A stretch of DNA of 64,000 nucleotides from assembly GCA_045536935.1 (NCBI GenBank), contig JAZSOO010000027.1:41418-105417 (forward strand), given 5' to 3'. This document shows, piece by piece, positions 16,235 to 32,297 of this stretch. Source of the stretch: Eubacteriales bacterium (lineage in GTDB: Bacteria > Bacillota > Clostridia > Oscillospirales > CAG-382). The notes beneath the pieces were generated by a model. It was not told the DNA's origin. It searched no databases and saw only the letters and a list, made by a program, of their open reading frames with translations. Position 1 is the first letter of the stretch, and every line of letters begins with the position of its first letter. The translations under genes were made by a program, and so were the position numbers.

Positions 16235-16310
16235 GATCCATTAGCTCAGCCGGTAGAGCACATGACTTTTAATCATGGTGTCCGGAGTTCGATTCTCCGA
16301 TGGATCACCA
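16235..16310 (+). tRNA. tRNA-Lys (anticodon UUU)
   Basis: Acceptor GATCCAT/ATGGATC, D arm GCTC-AGCCGGTA-GAGC, anticodon stem CATGA/TCATG with loop CT-TTT-AA, TPsiC GGAGTTCGATTCTCC, encoded CCA. Confidence 0.92.
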
Positions 16311-18932: not shown

Positions 18933-18935
18933 AAC

Positions 18936-19011
18936 CGCCCTTAGCTCAGCCGGATAGAGCAACGGATTCCGATTCCGTAGGCCGGGGGTTCAAATCCCTT
19001 AGGGCGGGCCA
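18936..19011 (+). tRNA. tRNA-Arg (anticodon CCG)
   Basis: Acceptor CCGCCCT/AGGGCGG, D arm GCTC-AGCCGGATA-GAGC, anticodon stem ACGGA/TCCGT with loop TT-CCG-AT, TPsiC GGGGGTTCAAATCCCTT, encoded CCA. Confidence 0.85.
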
Positions 19012-19847: not shown

Positions 19848-19889
19848 AGTTGAAAAAAGCACTTGCTTTCGCAAGTGCTTTTTTCAACT
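19848..19889 (+). terminator. rho-independent terminator of the GNAT gene
   Basis: Perfect 19-bp stem AGTTGAAAAAAGCACTTGC / GCAAGTGCTTTTTTCAACT with loop TTTC. Confidence 0.8.
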
Positions 19890-19894
19890 AAATA

Positions 19895-19990
19895 AATCCC
19901 TTGCGGGATTTGTGAAATACGCTTTGCGTGTGAAATATTGCTTCGCAATGTGATATGCCTGCGGGCGTGAGTGGATTTATTTCATTTCAC
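19895..19990. repeat. mini-hairpin array B: four hairpins spaced by TGTGAAATA-type boxes
   Basis: Hairpins AATCCC-ttgc-GGGATT, ACGC-ttt-GCGT, ATTGC-ttc-GCAAT and GCC-tgcg-GGC are separated by TGTGAAATA, TGTGAAATA(T) and TGTGATATG. An inverted ATTTCAC copy lies at 19984-19990. Confidence 0.65.
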
Positions 19991-20082: not shown

Positions 20083-20095
20083 TATTATGCTGTAG

Positions 20096-20192
20096 CACAA
20101 CTGACGGAAGATGCGGTTTACCGCAGGGGAGTGTTATGGGTATAAGCCGACCGTCTGGGCAAATCAGCATCACTGATTTGTCCTTTTATTTT
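20096..20192 (+). promoter_or_regulatory. ZTP riboswitch (pfl motif) with intrinsic terminator expression platform
   Basis: CACAACUGACGGAAGA-UGCGG-UUUA-CCGCA-GGGGAGUG parallels the conserved GACUGGCG...GGGAG 5' subdomain. 3' CCGACCGUCUGGGCA parallels CCGCCUGGGCA. GACGG (20103-07) is complementary to CCGUC (20151-55), giving the pseudoknot. Terminator stem 20158-67 / 20173-82 plus a T-run shares the GGGC of the aptamer. Confidence 0.8.
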
Positions 20193-20212: not shown

Positions 20213-22444
20213 ATGGAACACAATAATTGGAATGGTTTTAAAGGCGAACTTTGGAAGAACGAAATTAACGTTCGTGACTTCATTCAAAATAACTATGAAG
20301 AATATTGCGGTGACGATAGCTTTTTGGCAGAAGCAACCGAACGCACAAAAACTCTCTTTAAAAAGCTTCAATCTCTCTTTGCTTTGGAACGACAGTTTGG
20401 CGGTGTTTTGGATATTGATACCGATACGGTTTCATCTCTTACGGCTTATGCTCCCGGATATTTAGATAAAGAAAATGAATTGATCGTTGGTTTGCAAACC
20501 AACCGACCTTTGAAGAGAGGTCTTAATCCCTTCGGCGGTATGCGTATGATGCAGCAGGCTTGCGAAGCGTACGGCTATAAAGTTAGCCGTAAGGTCAAGG
20601 AAGAATTTACTTTCAGAACAACACACAACGACGGTGTTTTCAGAACCTACACGGATGAAATGCGTGCAGCTCGTAAATGTCACGTTATAACCGGACTTCC
20701 TGATGCTTACGGTCGAGGAAGACTTATCGGCGACTATCGCAGAGTTGCTCTTTACGGCGTAGACAGACTTATCGAAGAGAAGAAAAAGGATAAAGCCGAC
20801 CTCACAAATAAAACCTTCAATACAGAAGTAATTCGTATTGATGAAGAGCTTTATAAGCAGATAACCTTTTTGGGCTATATGAAGGATATGGCTCAAATGT
20901 ACGGTTACGATATAAGCGGACCTGCTTCTAATGCACGTGAGGCTATTCAATGGACCTATTTTGCATATCTTGCTGCCATTAAGGAACAGAACGGTGCCGC
21001 AATGTCTTTGGGCAGAGTCAGCACTTTCTTTGATATTTACATTCAACGTGACATCAATAACGGTATTATTACCGAAGTCGAAGCGCAGGAATTGATTGAC
21101 GATTTCGTTATGAAGCTTCGCATGGCACGCCATTTGCGTACCCCCGAATATAACGAGCTTTTCGGCGGCGATCCCATGTGGATCACAGAAGCAGTCGGCG
21201 GTATGGGTGATGACGGCAGAACTCTTGTTACAAAGAGCAGCTATAGAATTCTTAATACTCTCTATACTCTCGGTTCTTCTCCCGAACCCAATTTGACAGT
21301 TCTTTGGTCGACTTCCTTGCCTGAAAACTTCAAGAAATTCTGTGCAAAGGTTTCTATCGATACCGACTCTATTCAGTACGAAAACGATGACGTTATGCGT
21401 CCTCTTTATGGCGACGATTATGCTATCGCTTGCTGTGTTTCCGCAATGAAAATCGGCAAGCAGATGCAGTTCTTCGGTGCAAGATGTAATATGCCCAAGC
21501 TTCTTCTTATTGCGCTTAACGGCGGTTACGATACCACCTGCGGTATGCATATCGGACCTCAAATGCCCGTTCTCGATACTGAAAAGCTTGATTATTCGGA
21601 AGTTTCGGAAAGATTCGACATATATTTGAAATGGCTTTGCGCTTTGTACGTAAACACAATGAATATAATTCATTATATGCATGATAAATATGCGTACGAA
21701 AAGGTTCAAATGGCTCTCCACGATACCTATGCAGAGCGTTTTATGGCGTTTGGTATTGCAGGCTTGTCGGTTATGGCCGATTCTATGAGCGCTATCAAAT
21801 ATGCAAACGTTCGTCCTATCAAGAATGAAAACGGATATATAGTTGATTTTGAAACCACGGGCGAATTTCCGAAATTCGGTAACGATGATGACCGTGTTGA
21901 CTTGATTGCAAAAGAAATGTCGCACAAAATGATTACCGAATTGCGCAAAACACCCACATACAGAAATTCGACACATACTCTCTCTGTTCTTACTATCACC
22001 TCGAACGTTATGTATGGCAAGAATACCGGCGCAACACCCGACGGAAGAAAAGCATCTGCACCCTATGCACCCGGCGCAAACCCTATGCATAACCGCGAAG
22101 AGAACGGTGCACTTGCTTCGCTTAACTCGGTTGCAAAGATCGATTATAACGATTGCCGTGACGGTATTTCCAATACCTTCTCGATAACTCCCGATGCGCT
22201 CGGCAGAGACGATTCGGAACGTGTTGTAAACCTTGTTTCCATACTCGACGGCTATTTCGCAAAGAAGGCGCATCATATTAACGTTAACGTTATGACTCGT
22301 GAGCTTCTTATGAAGGCTTATGAAAACCCCGAGGATTATCCTAACCTTACAATCCGTGTTTCGGGCTATGCAGTTAACTTTAACAAGCTTTCCCGTGAAC
22401 AGCAACGTGAAGTTATAAGCCGAACCTTCCACGAAGCAATATGA
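20213..22444 (+). CDS. pflB: formate C-acetyltransferase (pyruvate formate-lyase)
   Basis: 743 aa with glycyl-radical motif TIRVSGYAV near the C-terminus and the active-site CC pair (IACCVSAMK). Confidence 0.97.
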
Positions 22445-29311: not shown

Positions 29312-29323
29312 TGTTAATTAATT

Positions 29324-29347
29324 GAACACATAAAAAAGACAAATCAT
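29324..29347 (+). repeat. left direct repeat of the islet
   Basis: GAACACATAAAAAAGACAAATCAT; 23 of 24 positions identical to 32240-32263. Confidence 0.8.
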
Positions 29348-29350
29348 AAG

Positions 29351-29458
29351 ATGCTATTCGCTATATCGAAATGTACAATTAACCTCTCTGAGCTCGCTCA
29401 TTTGTGTGATTTTAGTAGAACTACGATATATAAATACATTTTTCTTTTGGAACAATAA
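29351..29458 (+). pseudogene. possible relic of a recombinase/excisionase-type HTH (35 codons)
   Basis: Translates to MLFAISKCTINLSELAHLCDFSRTTIYKYIFLLEQ*. The LSELAHLCDFSRTTIYKYI segment resembles the C-terminal HTH of small serine recombinases and excisionases. No RBS and no catalytic domain. Confidence 0.3.
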
Positions 29459-29490
29459 AATCGGGAACATTTTGTTCCCGATTTTATTGT
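29452..29490. terminator. perfect 18-bp palindrome, bidirectional terminator at the end of the islet operon
   Basis: ACAATAAAATCGGGAACA-ttt-TGTTCCCGATTTTATTGT with T-runs inside the arms on both strands. Lies 5 nt downstream of the 49-aa ORF stop. Confidence 0.75.
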
Positions 29491-29494
29491 AAAA

Positions 29495-29644
29495 TTAAAC
29501 ATTAAATGCCAAGATTAAAGAGACTAAGACTATTGCAAAAAAAGCAGCACCAAAAGGACGTATTTCTTTATTTTCATTTGGAATTAAACAAACGATAATG
29601 CCAACTATACATCCTATTAATACGAACAAATACCAAAAATCCAT
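29495..29644 (-). CDS. 49-aa two-TM membrane peptide (below the ORF-track threshold)
   Basis: MDFWYLFVLIGCIVGIIVCLIPNENKEIRPFGAAFFAIVLVSLILAFNV*. GGAGGTG RBS 7 nt upstream of the ATG. Lies 33 nt after the 565-aa gene and ahead of the terminator. Confidence 0.6.
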   Translation of the reverse strand: MDFWYLFVLIGCIVGIIVCLIPNENKEIRPFGAAFFAIVLVSLILAFNV

Positions 29645-29677
29645 AAAATTTCACCTCCATTTTATTTAAATTGAATT

Positions 29678-31375
29678 TTATTTTAATGCAACCATAAATC
29701 CTAAGGCATTCGTTAGTTCTGCATTTACCTTTGAATAGTACGCTGTAACAGCACTATTATGAGCAATAACAGCAGTATTCTTTGAAATGTTATGCAAATA
29801 AACATTCATATCAGTGGTGTTCTTATTAATTGTATCTAACGAAGAAACGGCTTTTTCCATTGTGCTGTTTAGAGTGCTTAATGAATTATCAATATCTCTC
29901 AATTTATTATATATCATAAATTGATTTTCTTTGATTTCGTCAAGCTTCGTGATAATGGTGTTTAATCTTATTTCGTTTTCATAGATGTTATATGCGCCAT
30001 TTATTCCCTCGAGGGTTTCGCATCTGCCGGACATTAGATATTCATAGAATGTTGAAAGTGCTACAATGTTTCTATACTTATCAAACACAATGTTATAACT
30101 ATATAATTCGTTTCTACACTTGAACAGTTCTTTCAATGTATCTTCAACTGTTTTAATCTCCGAATCTAATAAGTGTTTTTCACCAAGTGCTTTTGTAGGA
30201 ATGCTATTTATATTACTAAGTTTTGAACCTAATTTATTTTGCGACTCAATTAATTCAGATGCGTATCTTCCGATTTTATCACTCAGCTGTTTTACTTGTT
30301 CGGATCTTTGTCCTTCTGCGGCTATCCTGAGTTTTTCATTGTCTGCATCACACTGTTTGATGTCTGAATTGTATTTATCTATAGCTATTTCGTAGTCACG
30401 TAGTGTTTGTGCGTTTTCTGCCTCTACCTTTTTCTTGTTAAAGAAATATGGTGTTCTTAGATTTGGATATTCGGGTTTTGAAGGATATTCTTTTTTCTTG
30501 AAGTTAATTGGTTGATTTTCAAAATCAGATAACTCTTTTTTTGAATTTTTCAGGCGAGAACTTTTTGATTCTATATCTTGCCTTAAATCGTACAAAGCAT
30601 AATTGTGCTCGAATACAACATCTTTATTGTTATATATTTGTTGGAAATACAACTGTTCTAAACGTTTTGATAAGCACATTATATTTGATTCTAAATTTAT
30701 TATATTTAAGACATATTCTTTTAAAGTATTTGTTTCGATTTGATTATTTAAACAGTTATGCGTATGCGGTTTTATATCTACATTTTGAATAAAAGAGAAA
30801 ACATTTTCGTTTGCCTTTGATTTACTAAAATCAGCAATTTCCTTATGCATTGCATTAATTTTAAAATCATATAATTTGTTAGTATAATATGCTTCATCGT
30901 TAGACAATTCAGCGTTACATATCAGACACCGTTTAGTATTACAGACTTTGTCTATTTCCTTTAAAACATCTTTATTGTTTTTTTCATGTTCTTTTATCAA
31001 TGCTTCGATTTTATTATAAAACGCTTGGCTATAACAACCCGTTGTGTAATAGTTCCAATAACCATTTACGTATTCACATTGCTGAACATCATCATCAAAA
31101 ATATCTGCTCTATAACCACCTCTAGCAACTTTTTCTAGTTTGTTATAGATATCAAGATATTTCCATTCTCCATAAAGTTCCGCGCCGCAATTAGGACAAA
31201 TAAAGAATACAGATTTATCACGTTCATGGATATTGACGCTTCTCCGTTTTCTTGCTTCGTCGGAGATTTTCTTTATCGTGTGTTCAGGACAATTTACTTT
31301 AGGTACTTTTTTAAAGAATTCTTCGCGTAGCGTTTTATGATCGATATTTCCTAATTTATTTAACTGAAATCTCAT
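29678..31375 (-). CDS. 565-aa zinc-ribbon + long coiled-coil protein, unknown function
   Basis: AAAGGAG RBS 7 nt upstream. CPEH(29-32)...CPNC(60-63) and CNTKRCLIC cysteine clusters, then ~400 aa of K/E/N/L-rich heptad-like sequence. No Walker, nuclease or other catalytic motif recognised. Confidence 0.85.
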   Translation of the reverse strand: MRFQLNKLGNIDHKTLREEFFKKVPKVNCPEHTIKKISDEARKRRSVNIHERDKSVFFICPNCGAELYGEWKYLDIYNKLEKVARGGYRADIFDDDVQQCEYVNGYWNYYTTGCYSQAFYNKIEALIKEHEKNNKDVLKEIDKVCNTKRCLICNAELSNDEAYYTNKLYDFKINAMHKEIADFSKSKANENVFSFIQNVDIKPHTHNCLNNQIETNTLKEYVLNIINLESNIMCLSKRLEQLYFQQIYNNKDVVFEHNYALYDLRQDIESKSSRLKNSKKELSDFENQPINFKKKEYPSKPEYPNLRTPYFFNKKKVEAENAQTLRDYEIAIDKYNSDIKQCDADNEKLRIAAEGQRSEQVKQLSDKIGRYASELIESQNKLGSKLSNINSIPTKALGEKHLLDSEIKTVEDTLKELFKCRNELYSYNIVFDKYRNIVALSTFYEYLMSGRCETLEGINGAYNIYENEIRLNTIITKLDEIKENQFMIYNKLRDIDNSLSTLNSTMEKAVSSLDTINKNTTDMNVYLHNISKNTAVIAHNSAVTAYYSKVNAELTNALGFMVALK

Positions 31376-31757
31376 GATGCAGCTCCTTTATCATATTCAA
31401 AAAAACATCAATTTTTTCTTCGTTGAATACATATACTTTTTCTTTACCCCATCCCGAGAACTCTCTGTTCTTTTCAATATAGCTTATCCCGTTTTTGCTA
31501 GTAAAGATGTCGTTTATGTTAGCTGAAAAATAATTCAAATTTCTAGCTTTTTTGTCATGTAATACCCAGACAAAATATAATTGTAGTTCTTTAGAATACC
31601 CGATAATAAATAATTGTTCTTCTTTTCTTGCTAAATGGCTCGATCTGCATTTGATTCTGTTGTTTTTCAAATTAGCACTATAAACAAAATTGAAAACTCT
31701 TTCAAAGTCTATATTTGTATTATTACAATGCAATATAAAGTTTTTTGCGTAATCCAT
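31356..31757 (-). CDS. 133-aa protein of unknown function, first gene of the islet operon
   Basis: AAGGAG RBS 6 nt upstream. Its last 20 nt overlap the start of the 565-aa gene (translational coupling). No recognisable family. Confidence 0.8.
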   Translation of the reverse strand: MDYAKNFILHCNNTNIDFERVFNFVYSANLKNNRIKCRSSHLARKEEQLFIIGYSKELQLYFVWVLHDKKARNLNYFSANINDIFTSKNGISYIEKNREFSGWGKEKVYVFNEEKIDVFLNMIKELHHEISVK

Positions 31758-31818: not shown

Positions 31819-31847
31819 ATAATAACATTTATAAAACTGCGTGTCAA
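31819..31847 (-). promoter_or_regulatory. sigma-A-type promoter of the islet operon
   Basis: The minus strand reads TTGACA (31847-31842), 17 nt ending TGT, TATTAT (31824-31819). Confidence 0.55.
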
Positions 31848-31920: not shown

Positions 31921-32232
31921 ATGACAGCAGAATTTGTAAGAGATAGAATAACTCAGTTAAGAATCCAAAAGGGTGTATCTGAATATAAAATGAGCTATGA
32001 TTTAGGTCATAGCAGGGGATATATCAACAATATTTCTTCCGGCAAAGCTTTGCCCTCTCTTGCTGAATTTTTTGCTATTTGTGAATATTTTGGTATAACT
32101 CCTATTGAATTTTTTGATATTGATAACCATAATCCCAAAATGACAAAGGATACTTTAGAAGGTTTAAATAAATTGAAGGGTTCCGATTTGGAGCTTGTTC
32201 AGTTGTTAGTTGATCGTTTATATAGAGAATAA
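31921..32232 (+). CDS. XRE-family helix-turn-helix transcriptional regulator
   Basis: 103 aa. RITQLRIQKGVSEYKMSYDLGHSRGYINNISSGKALPSLAEFFAICEYFGITPIEFF is a typical HTH_3 domain. AAGGAG RBS. Divergent from the islet operon. Confidence 0.85.
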   Translation: MTAEFVRDRITQLRIQKGVSEYKMSYDLGHSRGYINNISSGKALPSLAEFFAICEYFGITPIEFFDIDNHNPKMTKDTLEGLNKLKGSDLELVQLLVDRLYRE

Positions 32233-32239
32233 GTTCTAT

Positions 32240-32263
32240 GAACACATAAAAAAGACACATCAT
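32240..32263 (+). repeat. right direct repeat of the islet
   Basis: GAACACATAAAAAAGACACATCAT. It overlaps the left arm of the terminator hairpin at 32253-32290. Confidence 0.8.
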
Positions 32264-32297
32264 TAAGGATTTCTCCAAAATGATGTGTCTGATTTTT
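32253..32297. terminator. bidirectional rho-independent terminator
   Basis: AGACACATCATT / AATGATGTGTCT 12-bp stem (inner GGA/TCC extends it). Followed by GATTTTTT on the plus strand and TTTTTATG on the minus strand. Confidence 0.8.

Follow-up and report, generated by a model that had tools for sequence, protein, structure and literature searches.

A 49-codon reading frame at the 3' end of a predicted operon in the 64,000 nucleotides of Eubacteriales DNA analysed here (the window) is, judged from how its sequence has diverged between two cassettes, a genuine, selected gene for a micro-protein with two transmembrane (TM) helices. Length cut-offs hide real micro-protein genes such as this one; the evolutionary evidence for it is strong and comes from a single diverged copy. 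As to its role, our preferred reading, to which we give a probability of roughly 40%, is that the peptide serves the 565-aa protein encoded directly upstream as a membrane partner and would supply a TM hairpin in trans. The find itself is modest, being narrow in distribution and of a familiar kind, a small membrane protein at the end of an operon. It also points to a protein family without a Pfam match that comes in TM-fused and TM-less forms and is carried by small integrative islets that insert where a GGGtGRT gene terminates. The pair of peptide and 565-aa protein would be the most tractable entry to the function of this family, provided that the two do cooperate at the membrane.

The peptide reading frame and its signals

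The features at the end of the operon are as follows.

29495-29644 (stop codon counted), minus strand: 49-aa reading frame of the two-TM hairpin peptide, supported by translation, hydropathy and purifying selection relative to locus L010
29652-29658, minus strand: Shine-Dalgarno sequence GGAGGTG, 7 nt before the ATG of the peptide frame
29452-29490, minus strand: 18-bp hairpin terminator, common to the operon and a convergent recombinase remnant, starting 4 nt past the peptide stop
29678-31375, minus strand: 565-aa gene, whose product has a Zn-ribbon/CxxC N-terminus, a long coiled-coil stretch and, at residues ~396-565, a conserved C-terminal domain of helices

A sequence-only reading of the window had proposed a 49-aa frame preceded by GGAGGTG, two hydrophobic helices around a short polar loop and an operon terminator just past the frame, and all three are borne out. 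The ATG occupies positions 29644-29642 and the TAA positions 29497-29495 of the minus strand, the translation (MDFWYLFVLIGCIVGIIVCLIPNENKEIRPFGAAFFAIVLVSLILAFNV) matches the earlier one exactly, and the 7-nt distance of the Shine-Dalgarno sequence, which is strong and unoccluded in the window, agrees as well. Hydropathy places the two hydrophobic segments at residues 3-21 and 31-47, joined by the loop PNENKEIRP. The frame starts 33 nt past the stop of the 565-aa gene.

The peptide is very hydrophobic (GRAVY 1.59), and the summed Hessa apparent free energy in 17-residue windows is -4.0 for the first segment and -2.7 for the second. Two basic residues (K26 and R29, both in the inter-helix loop) and three acidic ones give a net charge of about -1; all charges except D2 sit in the loop, and the C-terminus (...SLILAFNV) has no charged residue past the second TM helix. 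The helices contain small-residue motifs of the GxxxG type, namely G11xxxG15 and G32/A33/A37. At the local GC content, ~1.6% of 49-codon stretches are expected to be open by chance. Automatic gene finders have already called the gene, which stands in the protein collection as the nameless entry P0001 (NCBI and Logan sources).

Substitution pattern between copies of the peptide gene

Three copies of the peptide gene are known, one in the window and one each at loci L009 and L010, and two of the three are nearly identical. L009 belongs to a sister strain and encodes the same peptide from a GTG instead of an ATG start codon, with an identical Shine-Dalgarno sequence. L010 stems from another metagenome and carries the same four-gene cassette in a different genomic background; relative to the window, its big protein is 66% identical, its 133-aa protein 73% and its helix-turn-helix (HTH) regulator 93%. 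At the equivalent site L010 has a 49-codon frame encoding MDFWYLFILIGCIVGIIGCLIPNQNKEIRPFGAAFFAIVLICLILAFNV, and upstream of its ATG lie a different spacer and only a weaker AAGGA ~12 nt away.

Over the 150 nt of the frame, the window and L010 differ at 23 positions with no indels, and the differences fall on first, second and third codon positions in the numbers 3, 2 and 18. They comprise 18 synonymous changes and five conservative replacements (V8I, V18G, E24Q, V41I and S42C), giving a dS of 1.10, a dN of 0.044 and a dN/dS of about 0.04 (binomial P = 8e-9 under neutrality). At the same divergence, dN/dS is 0.16 for the whole 565-aa gene and 0.15 for the 133-aa gene, and the C-terminal domain of the 565-aa protein taken by itself has a dS of 1.14 and a dN/dS of 0.028. 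Synonymous divergence and constraint of the peptide gene are thus close to those of the C-terminal domain, which argues that the peptide is as old as the cassette and constrained like the most conserved domain of its neighbour.

It is highly improbable that the frame arose by chance in AT-rich DNA between genes, or that it is an element conserved for a non-coding role. Such an explanation could draw on the extreme shortness of the frame, on its lack of a family and on long-form relatives of the 565-aa gene that go without it. Against it stand the concentration of differences at third positions (18 of 23), the absence of indels and the low dN/dS with its P value, a protein that is better kept (90% identity) than the DNA encoding it (85%), a start codon retained as either ATG or GTG, and the lack of any Rfam match. 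By these comparisons, a chance frame is effectively refuted. Conservation of the frame downstream of homologues of the 565-aa gene, which the sequence-only reading had named as a check, was found in part: the frame is kept in L010, whereas no small frame of any kind follows the majority of 565-aa homologues.

Operon structure and regulation

Upstream of the 565-aa gene, the operon and its control region contain the following features.

31356-31757, minus strand: 133-aa gene, the first cistron; its end and the start of the 565-aa gene share 20 nt
31819-31847, minus strand: promoter-like site with TTGACA, a 17-nt spacer, TATTAT and an extended-10 TG (11 of 12 consensus matches)
31921-32232, plus strand: divergent XRE-family HTH regulator of 103 aa (HTH_19, E 4e-9), 93% identical in L010

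The 133-aa gene comes first, followed by the 565-aa gene and then the peptide gene. Over its 163 nt, the control region matches that of L010 with 92% identity despite saturated synonymous sites. Between the 565-aa gene and the peptide frame we found no terminator and no usable promoter, the sole promoter-like match (9/12) ending at the ribosome-binding site (RBS), so that it is reasonable to infer co-transcription of the peptide gene as the last cistron. The terminator that follows has a perfect 18-bp stem (dG -24.5 kcal/mol, z = -6.9), and none of 200 shuffled sequences folds as well; a simple consensus terminator scanner missed the hairpin because its T-run lies within the stem.

The 133-aa protein has only six homologues and one recurrent, sub-threshold match, to MTaX1. 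Its AF2 model is mediocre (pLDDT 67), and a fold search with this model returned nothing. At L056 (4524-6199) the pair of HTH gene and 133-aa-family gene precedes a BspA-type LRR protein and not a 565-aa gene, an arrangement that suggests a regulator/adaptor front end with exchangeable cargo. In other branches, at L001 (5615-5833) and also at L062, L063 and L066, a conserved Cys-rich protein of ~73 aa (…KKNGC…VKC+xCFK…) precedes the big gene and takes the place of the 133-aa protein.

The islet and its insertion site

The operon lies on an islet of 2.9 kb with 26-33% GC (40-52% in the flanks), which contains the XRE repressor, the 133-aa, 565-aa and peptide genes and a serine-recombinase remnant. 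Its ends are marked by the following features.

29323-29347, strand not applicable: direct repeat copy 1, at the islet end, identical to copy 2 at 24 of 25 positions
32239-32263, strand not applicable: direct repeat copy 2, which shares sequence with the 3' arm and T-run of the hairpin (32254-32289) that terminates the GGGtGRT gene
29378-29458, plus strand: what is left of the 3' end of a serine recombinase (resolvase) gene running towards the operon, its stop inside the terminator stem

The 25-nt direct repeats look like an att-site duplication left by site-specific integration. Directly past the operon terminator, positions 29378-29455 of the plus strand translate to INLSELAHLCDFSRTTIYKYIFLLEQ. 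An intact resolvase at L060, encoded beside a relative of the big gene in convergent orientation, ends in a helix-turn-helix with whose 26 aa this stretch shares 69% identity. The stop codon of the remnant within the stem of the operon terminator suggests that the hairpin once terminated transcription from both sides, between two convergent genes. Taken together, the low GC content, the direct repeats and the resolvase remnant argue that the islet is a decayed site-specific integrative element.

The insertion site recurs. L010 and L063 have the palindromic element of the direct repeats at either end of the islet, and short duplicated bits of the GGGtGRT 3' end are found in L012, L014, L062 and L063. 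Relatives of the big gene adjoin a GGGtGRT (PF14057) gene in the window, L001, L012, L062 and L066, that is, in different organisms and in either orientation, and this pattern marks the 3' end and terminator of the GGGtGRT gene as a probable insertion hot spot.

The sister strain carries flanking core genes that are 91% identical to those of the window and an islet that is 99.2% identical. It is also without ~86 nt (window 29315-29400), the lower direct repeat among them, with the junction near window 29314-29401. The contrast between islet and flanks, together with this loss, points to a recent transfer or recombination of the islet that may have been followed by further decay.

Searches for the origin and contents of the islet gave little. 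Islet DNA, the peptide and the 565-aa family had no match in the phage and IMG/VR collections, PHROG gave no match, and the plasmid collections likewise returned no match for the islet. PADLOC found no match for the peptide, the 133-aa protein or the 565-aa protein, and its matches to the HTH protein were to generic regulator models only (capH, E 0.009). Rfam detected no RNA in the islet, and no bacteriocin, transporter or kinase gene lies near the peptide.

Distribution and gain of the peptide gene

A word-seeded search of 5.8 billion clusters and an exhaustive phmmer search of 1.84 billion representative proteins recovered no relatives of the peptide beyond its own two-member cluster, made up of the variants from the window and from L010. 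Nothing significant was found in IMG/VR, JGI metagenomes, GenBank phages (tblastn), PDB or the rest of the window, and comparison with Pfam, NCBIfam, PHROGs and PDB gave sub-threshold noise only (HlyIII, E 0.0097; DctA, 0.014). A tblastn match in L047/L048 (E 0.013) was rejected as a gapped chance alignment within an unrelated 178-aa frame.

We inspected about 60 loci with relatives of the 565-aa gene, and only L009 and L010 have the peptide; in more than 20 loci of the long form, the big gene is not followed by a small TM gene. Where the peptide occurs, it adjoins the 565-aa gene (three of three occurrences: window, L009 and L010). In the close homologues L013 and L014, the terminator hairpin follows the big gene directly, with no small frame (AAATCGGGAAC...GTTCCCGATTT), and L014 also matches the window over ~75 nt past the hairpin. 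The alignment of these loci delimits one segment.

29491-29677, minus strand: 187-nt segment (spacer, RBS and peptide frame), present in the window, L009 and L010; L014 has 4 nt (TATA) instead

No paralogue of the segment exists elsewhere in the window. By parsimony, the ancestor shared by the window and L010 cassettes would have acquired these 187 nt between its 565-aa gene and the terminator. Because L013, L014 and most homologues of the 565-aa gene go without a small frame, the peptide is, on present locus comparisons, an optional, lineage-specific add-on and not a conserved member of the operon.

Two other small frames were considered as downstream partners and discarded. The 83-aa two-TM frame after the L012 homologue, a candidate for a recurrent partner, lies beyond an att-like hairpin and a GGGtGRT fragment and so belongs to the flank. 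The 119-aa four-TM frame in L034 is uninterpretable, the gene upstream of it being cut by the contig end.

The 565-aa protein and its relatives

The 565-aa protein belongs to a family of at least 195 nameless proteins without a Pfam match, which so far come only from uncultured gut and rumen Clostridia; a divergent XRE regulator stands beside many of the family genes. Its AF2 model (pLDDT 80.7, pTM 0.72) combines an N-terminus that resembles a beta Zn-ribbon with very long helices and, at the C-terminus, a helical domain. Four cysteines are invariant and form two CxxC pairs (C59/C62 and C149/C152), which might make up a four-Cys ribbon or else a hook-like site of dimerisation. Two long helices enclose the second pair (149-152), for which a profile search returned a marginal match to the Rad50 zinc hook (1l8d, E 0.047). 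The protein has no match in Pfam, PADLOC, PHROG, NCBIfam, PDB or BFVD, and Foldseek of the model against PDB and BFVD returned only coiled-coil noise.

Counterparts of residues ~396-565 are found in about 30 shorter proteins, 260-390 aa long, and the C-terminal domains of long and short forms are homologous (hhalign probability 100%, E 7e-52). The short forms have two to three predicted TM helices right before this domain, whereas the long forms have no TM segment; a short N-terminal helix of the short forms resembles residues 213-245 of the long form. GAYNIYENEIR is the family motif of the domain (L004-L008, L026 and L028-L055). Tandem paralogues of the C-domain family occur in L035 and L039.

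The peptide as a possible membrane partner of the 565-aa protein

Our preferred reading takes the peptide as a TM hairpin provided in trans because the C-terminal domain is tethered to the membrane in cis in relatives of the 565-aa protein. A 2.9-kb islet would have been acquired horizontally and inserted at the terminator of the GGGtGRT gene, later losing its serine recombinase, and its XRE-controlled operon (133-aa, 565-aa and peptide genes) would be transcribed with the peptide gene last. The peptide would have been gained before the L010 and window cassettes split and then kept under purifying selection. As anchor, adaptor or membrane-acting end, it may tether or couple the C-terminal domain of the 565-aa protein to the membrane, the hairpin in trans replacing the one that is fused in cis before the C-terminal domain in ~30 shorter relatives. 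These short forms (for example L004, L005 and L048) resemble the arrangement in the window in the size of their hairpin, in its short loop and Gly-rich helices and often in a neighbouring divergent XRE gene; they differ in that the hairpin is part of the same polypeptide, whereas the peptide is a separate gene product.

A partnership is favoured by the constraint on the peptide, which equals that on the C-terminal domain, and by its invariable place beside the 565-aa gene. Several observations speak against it. The many long-form loci without a small TM gene imply that the long form needs no such partner in general. Comparison of the peptide with the cis hairpins of the short forms by hhalign gave a probability of 40% over 16 columns, which amounts to no demonstrable homology. 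Moreover, 90% identity is unusually high for a simple anchor, and the peptide is represented by three sequences only, two of them nearly identical.

Comparison with known small membrane proteins

The nearest kind appears to be the small membrane-protein subunit encoded downstream of its partner, a likeness in size and gene position only. A small membrane protein whose gene follows that of its partner is commonly a subunit of this partner, as with CydX and KdpF; CioY is another operon-end subunit, and AcrZ is a 49-aa modulator (PMC12648545). Like the peptide, these proteins have fewer than 50 aa, are hydrophobic and helical, lie just downstream of a larger gene and are often missed by annotation; they are also co-transcribed with that gene (PMC12648545), as is predicted for the peptide. 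Proteins of the CydX/KdpF kind, however, have a single TM helix that binds polytopic membrane enzymes or pumps, whereas the peptide has two TM helices and its presumed partner is a soluble-looking coiled-coil protein; no sequence relationship connects them.

The sequence-only reading had instead likened the peptide to holins and type I toxins, a membership that the comparison does not sustain: the peptide has no charged tail, no endolysin or phage context, no promoter of its own and no detectable antisense RNA. Type I toxins consist of a hydrophobic N-terminal helix and a positively charged, lysine-rich tail, and are expressed from their own promoter and countered by an antisense RNA antitoxin (PMC7699646). 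Those of Firmicutes (C. difficile CD0977.1/CD0956.2, Fst and TxpA) share with the peptide a length of ~50 aa, hydrophobicity, a mobile element and a good RBS (PMC7699646), but they have one N-terminal TM helix and the lysine-rich tail where the peptide has two TM helices and no tail. The strand opposite the peptide frame offers no better promoter candidate than a 9/12 match, and promoter-like sites are no commoner in the islet region than in shuffled sequences.

Holins typically have 65-150 aa and a charged C-terminal domain, and their genes belong to phage lysis cassettes, where an endolysin gene is adjacent. With class II holins and pinholins (e.g. S21) the peptide shares its small size and two-TM hairpin. 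At 49 aa it is shorter, however, and is without the charged C-terminal domain, and in place of a lysis cassette it is accompanied by genes for the HTH protein, the 133-aa protein and the 565-aa coiled-coil protein and by the resolvase remnant.

Alternative roles

A membrane-damaging effector in the style of a holin, a type I toxin or an abortive-infection pore, made upon derepression of the XRE-controlled promoter, oligomerising through the GxxxG-type motifs and depolarising or permeabilising the membrane, is a role that we regard as rather unlikely. It would account well for a very hydrophobic two-helix hairpin bearing G11xxxG15 and G32/A33/A37, for a strong promoter opposite a divergent and highly conserved XRE repressor and for the mobile, accessory nature of the cassette, and the very strong constraint fits a specific packing of helices in an oligomer. 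It agrees poorly with the missing positively charged tail, a trait of type I toxins (PMC7699646) and also of holins, and with a setting devoid of endolysin or phage context and of phage, IMG/VR, plasmid or PADLOC matches. The islet, moreover, has no Rfam RNA and no excess of promoter-like sites over shuffles, the RBS in the window is strong and unoccluded, and sister cassettes (L013 and L014) exist without the peptide.

The peptide might instead be independent, moron-like cargo that acts on a membrane protein of the host or confers immunity or exclusion, unlinked to the 565-aa protein; this we consider unlikely. A discrete gain of 187 nt with its own RBS, missing from all other cassettes, is what such cargo would leave, the module of HTH and 133-aa genes does take other cargo (the LRR protein of L056), and many small membrane proteins modulate transporters or kinases (PMC12648545). 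Yet the peptide never occurs apart from the 565-aa gene, though in three cases only, it has no promoter of its own, its constraint matches that of the adjacent C-terminal domain, and no bacteriocin, transporter or kinase gene is nearby. A bolder extension of the membrane-partner reading, which we likewise consider unlikely, is that the peptide is the detachable membrane module of an undescribed cassette family of gut Clostridia, XRE-controlled and mobilised by a serine recombinase. The conserved C-terminal domain of the family would work at the membrane with TM helices in cis or in trans, and the cassettes themselves would serve in defence, exclusion or addiction as a new kind of conflict system, in which the hairpin would act on the membrane.

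Other features of the window

Outside the islet, the window contains a Gut-1 RNA (76 bits, 19885-19961, plus strand), followed by a ZMP/ZTP riboswitch (57 bits, 20087-20167, plus strand) that lies just upstream of a 743-aa reading frame (20213-22444). Two tRNAs are located at 16235-16307 and 18935-19008.
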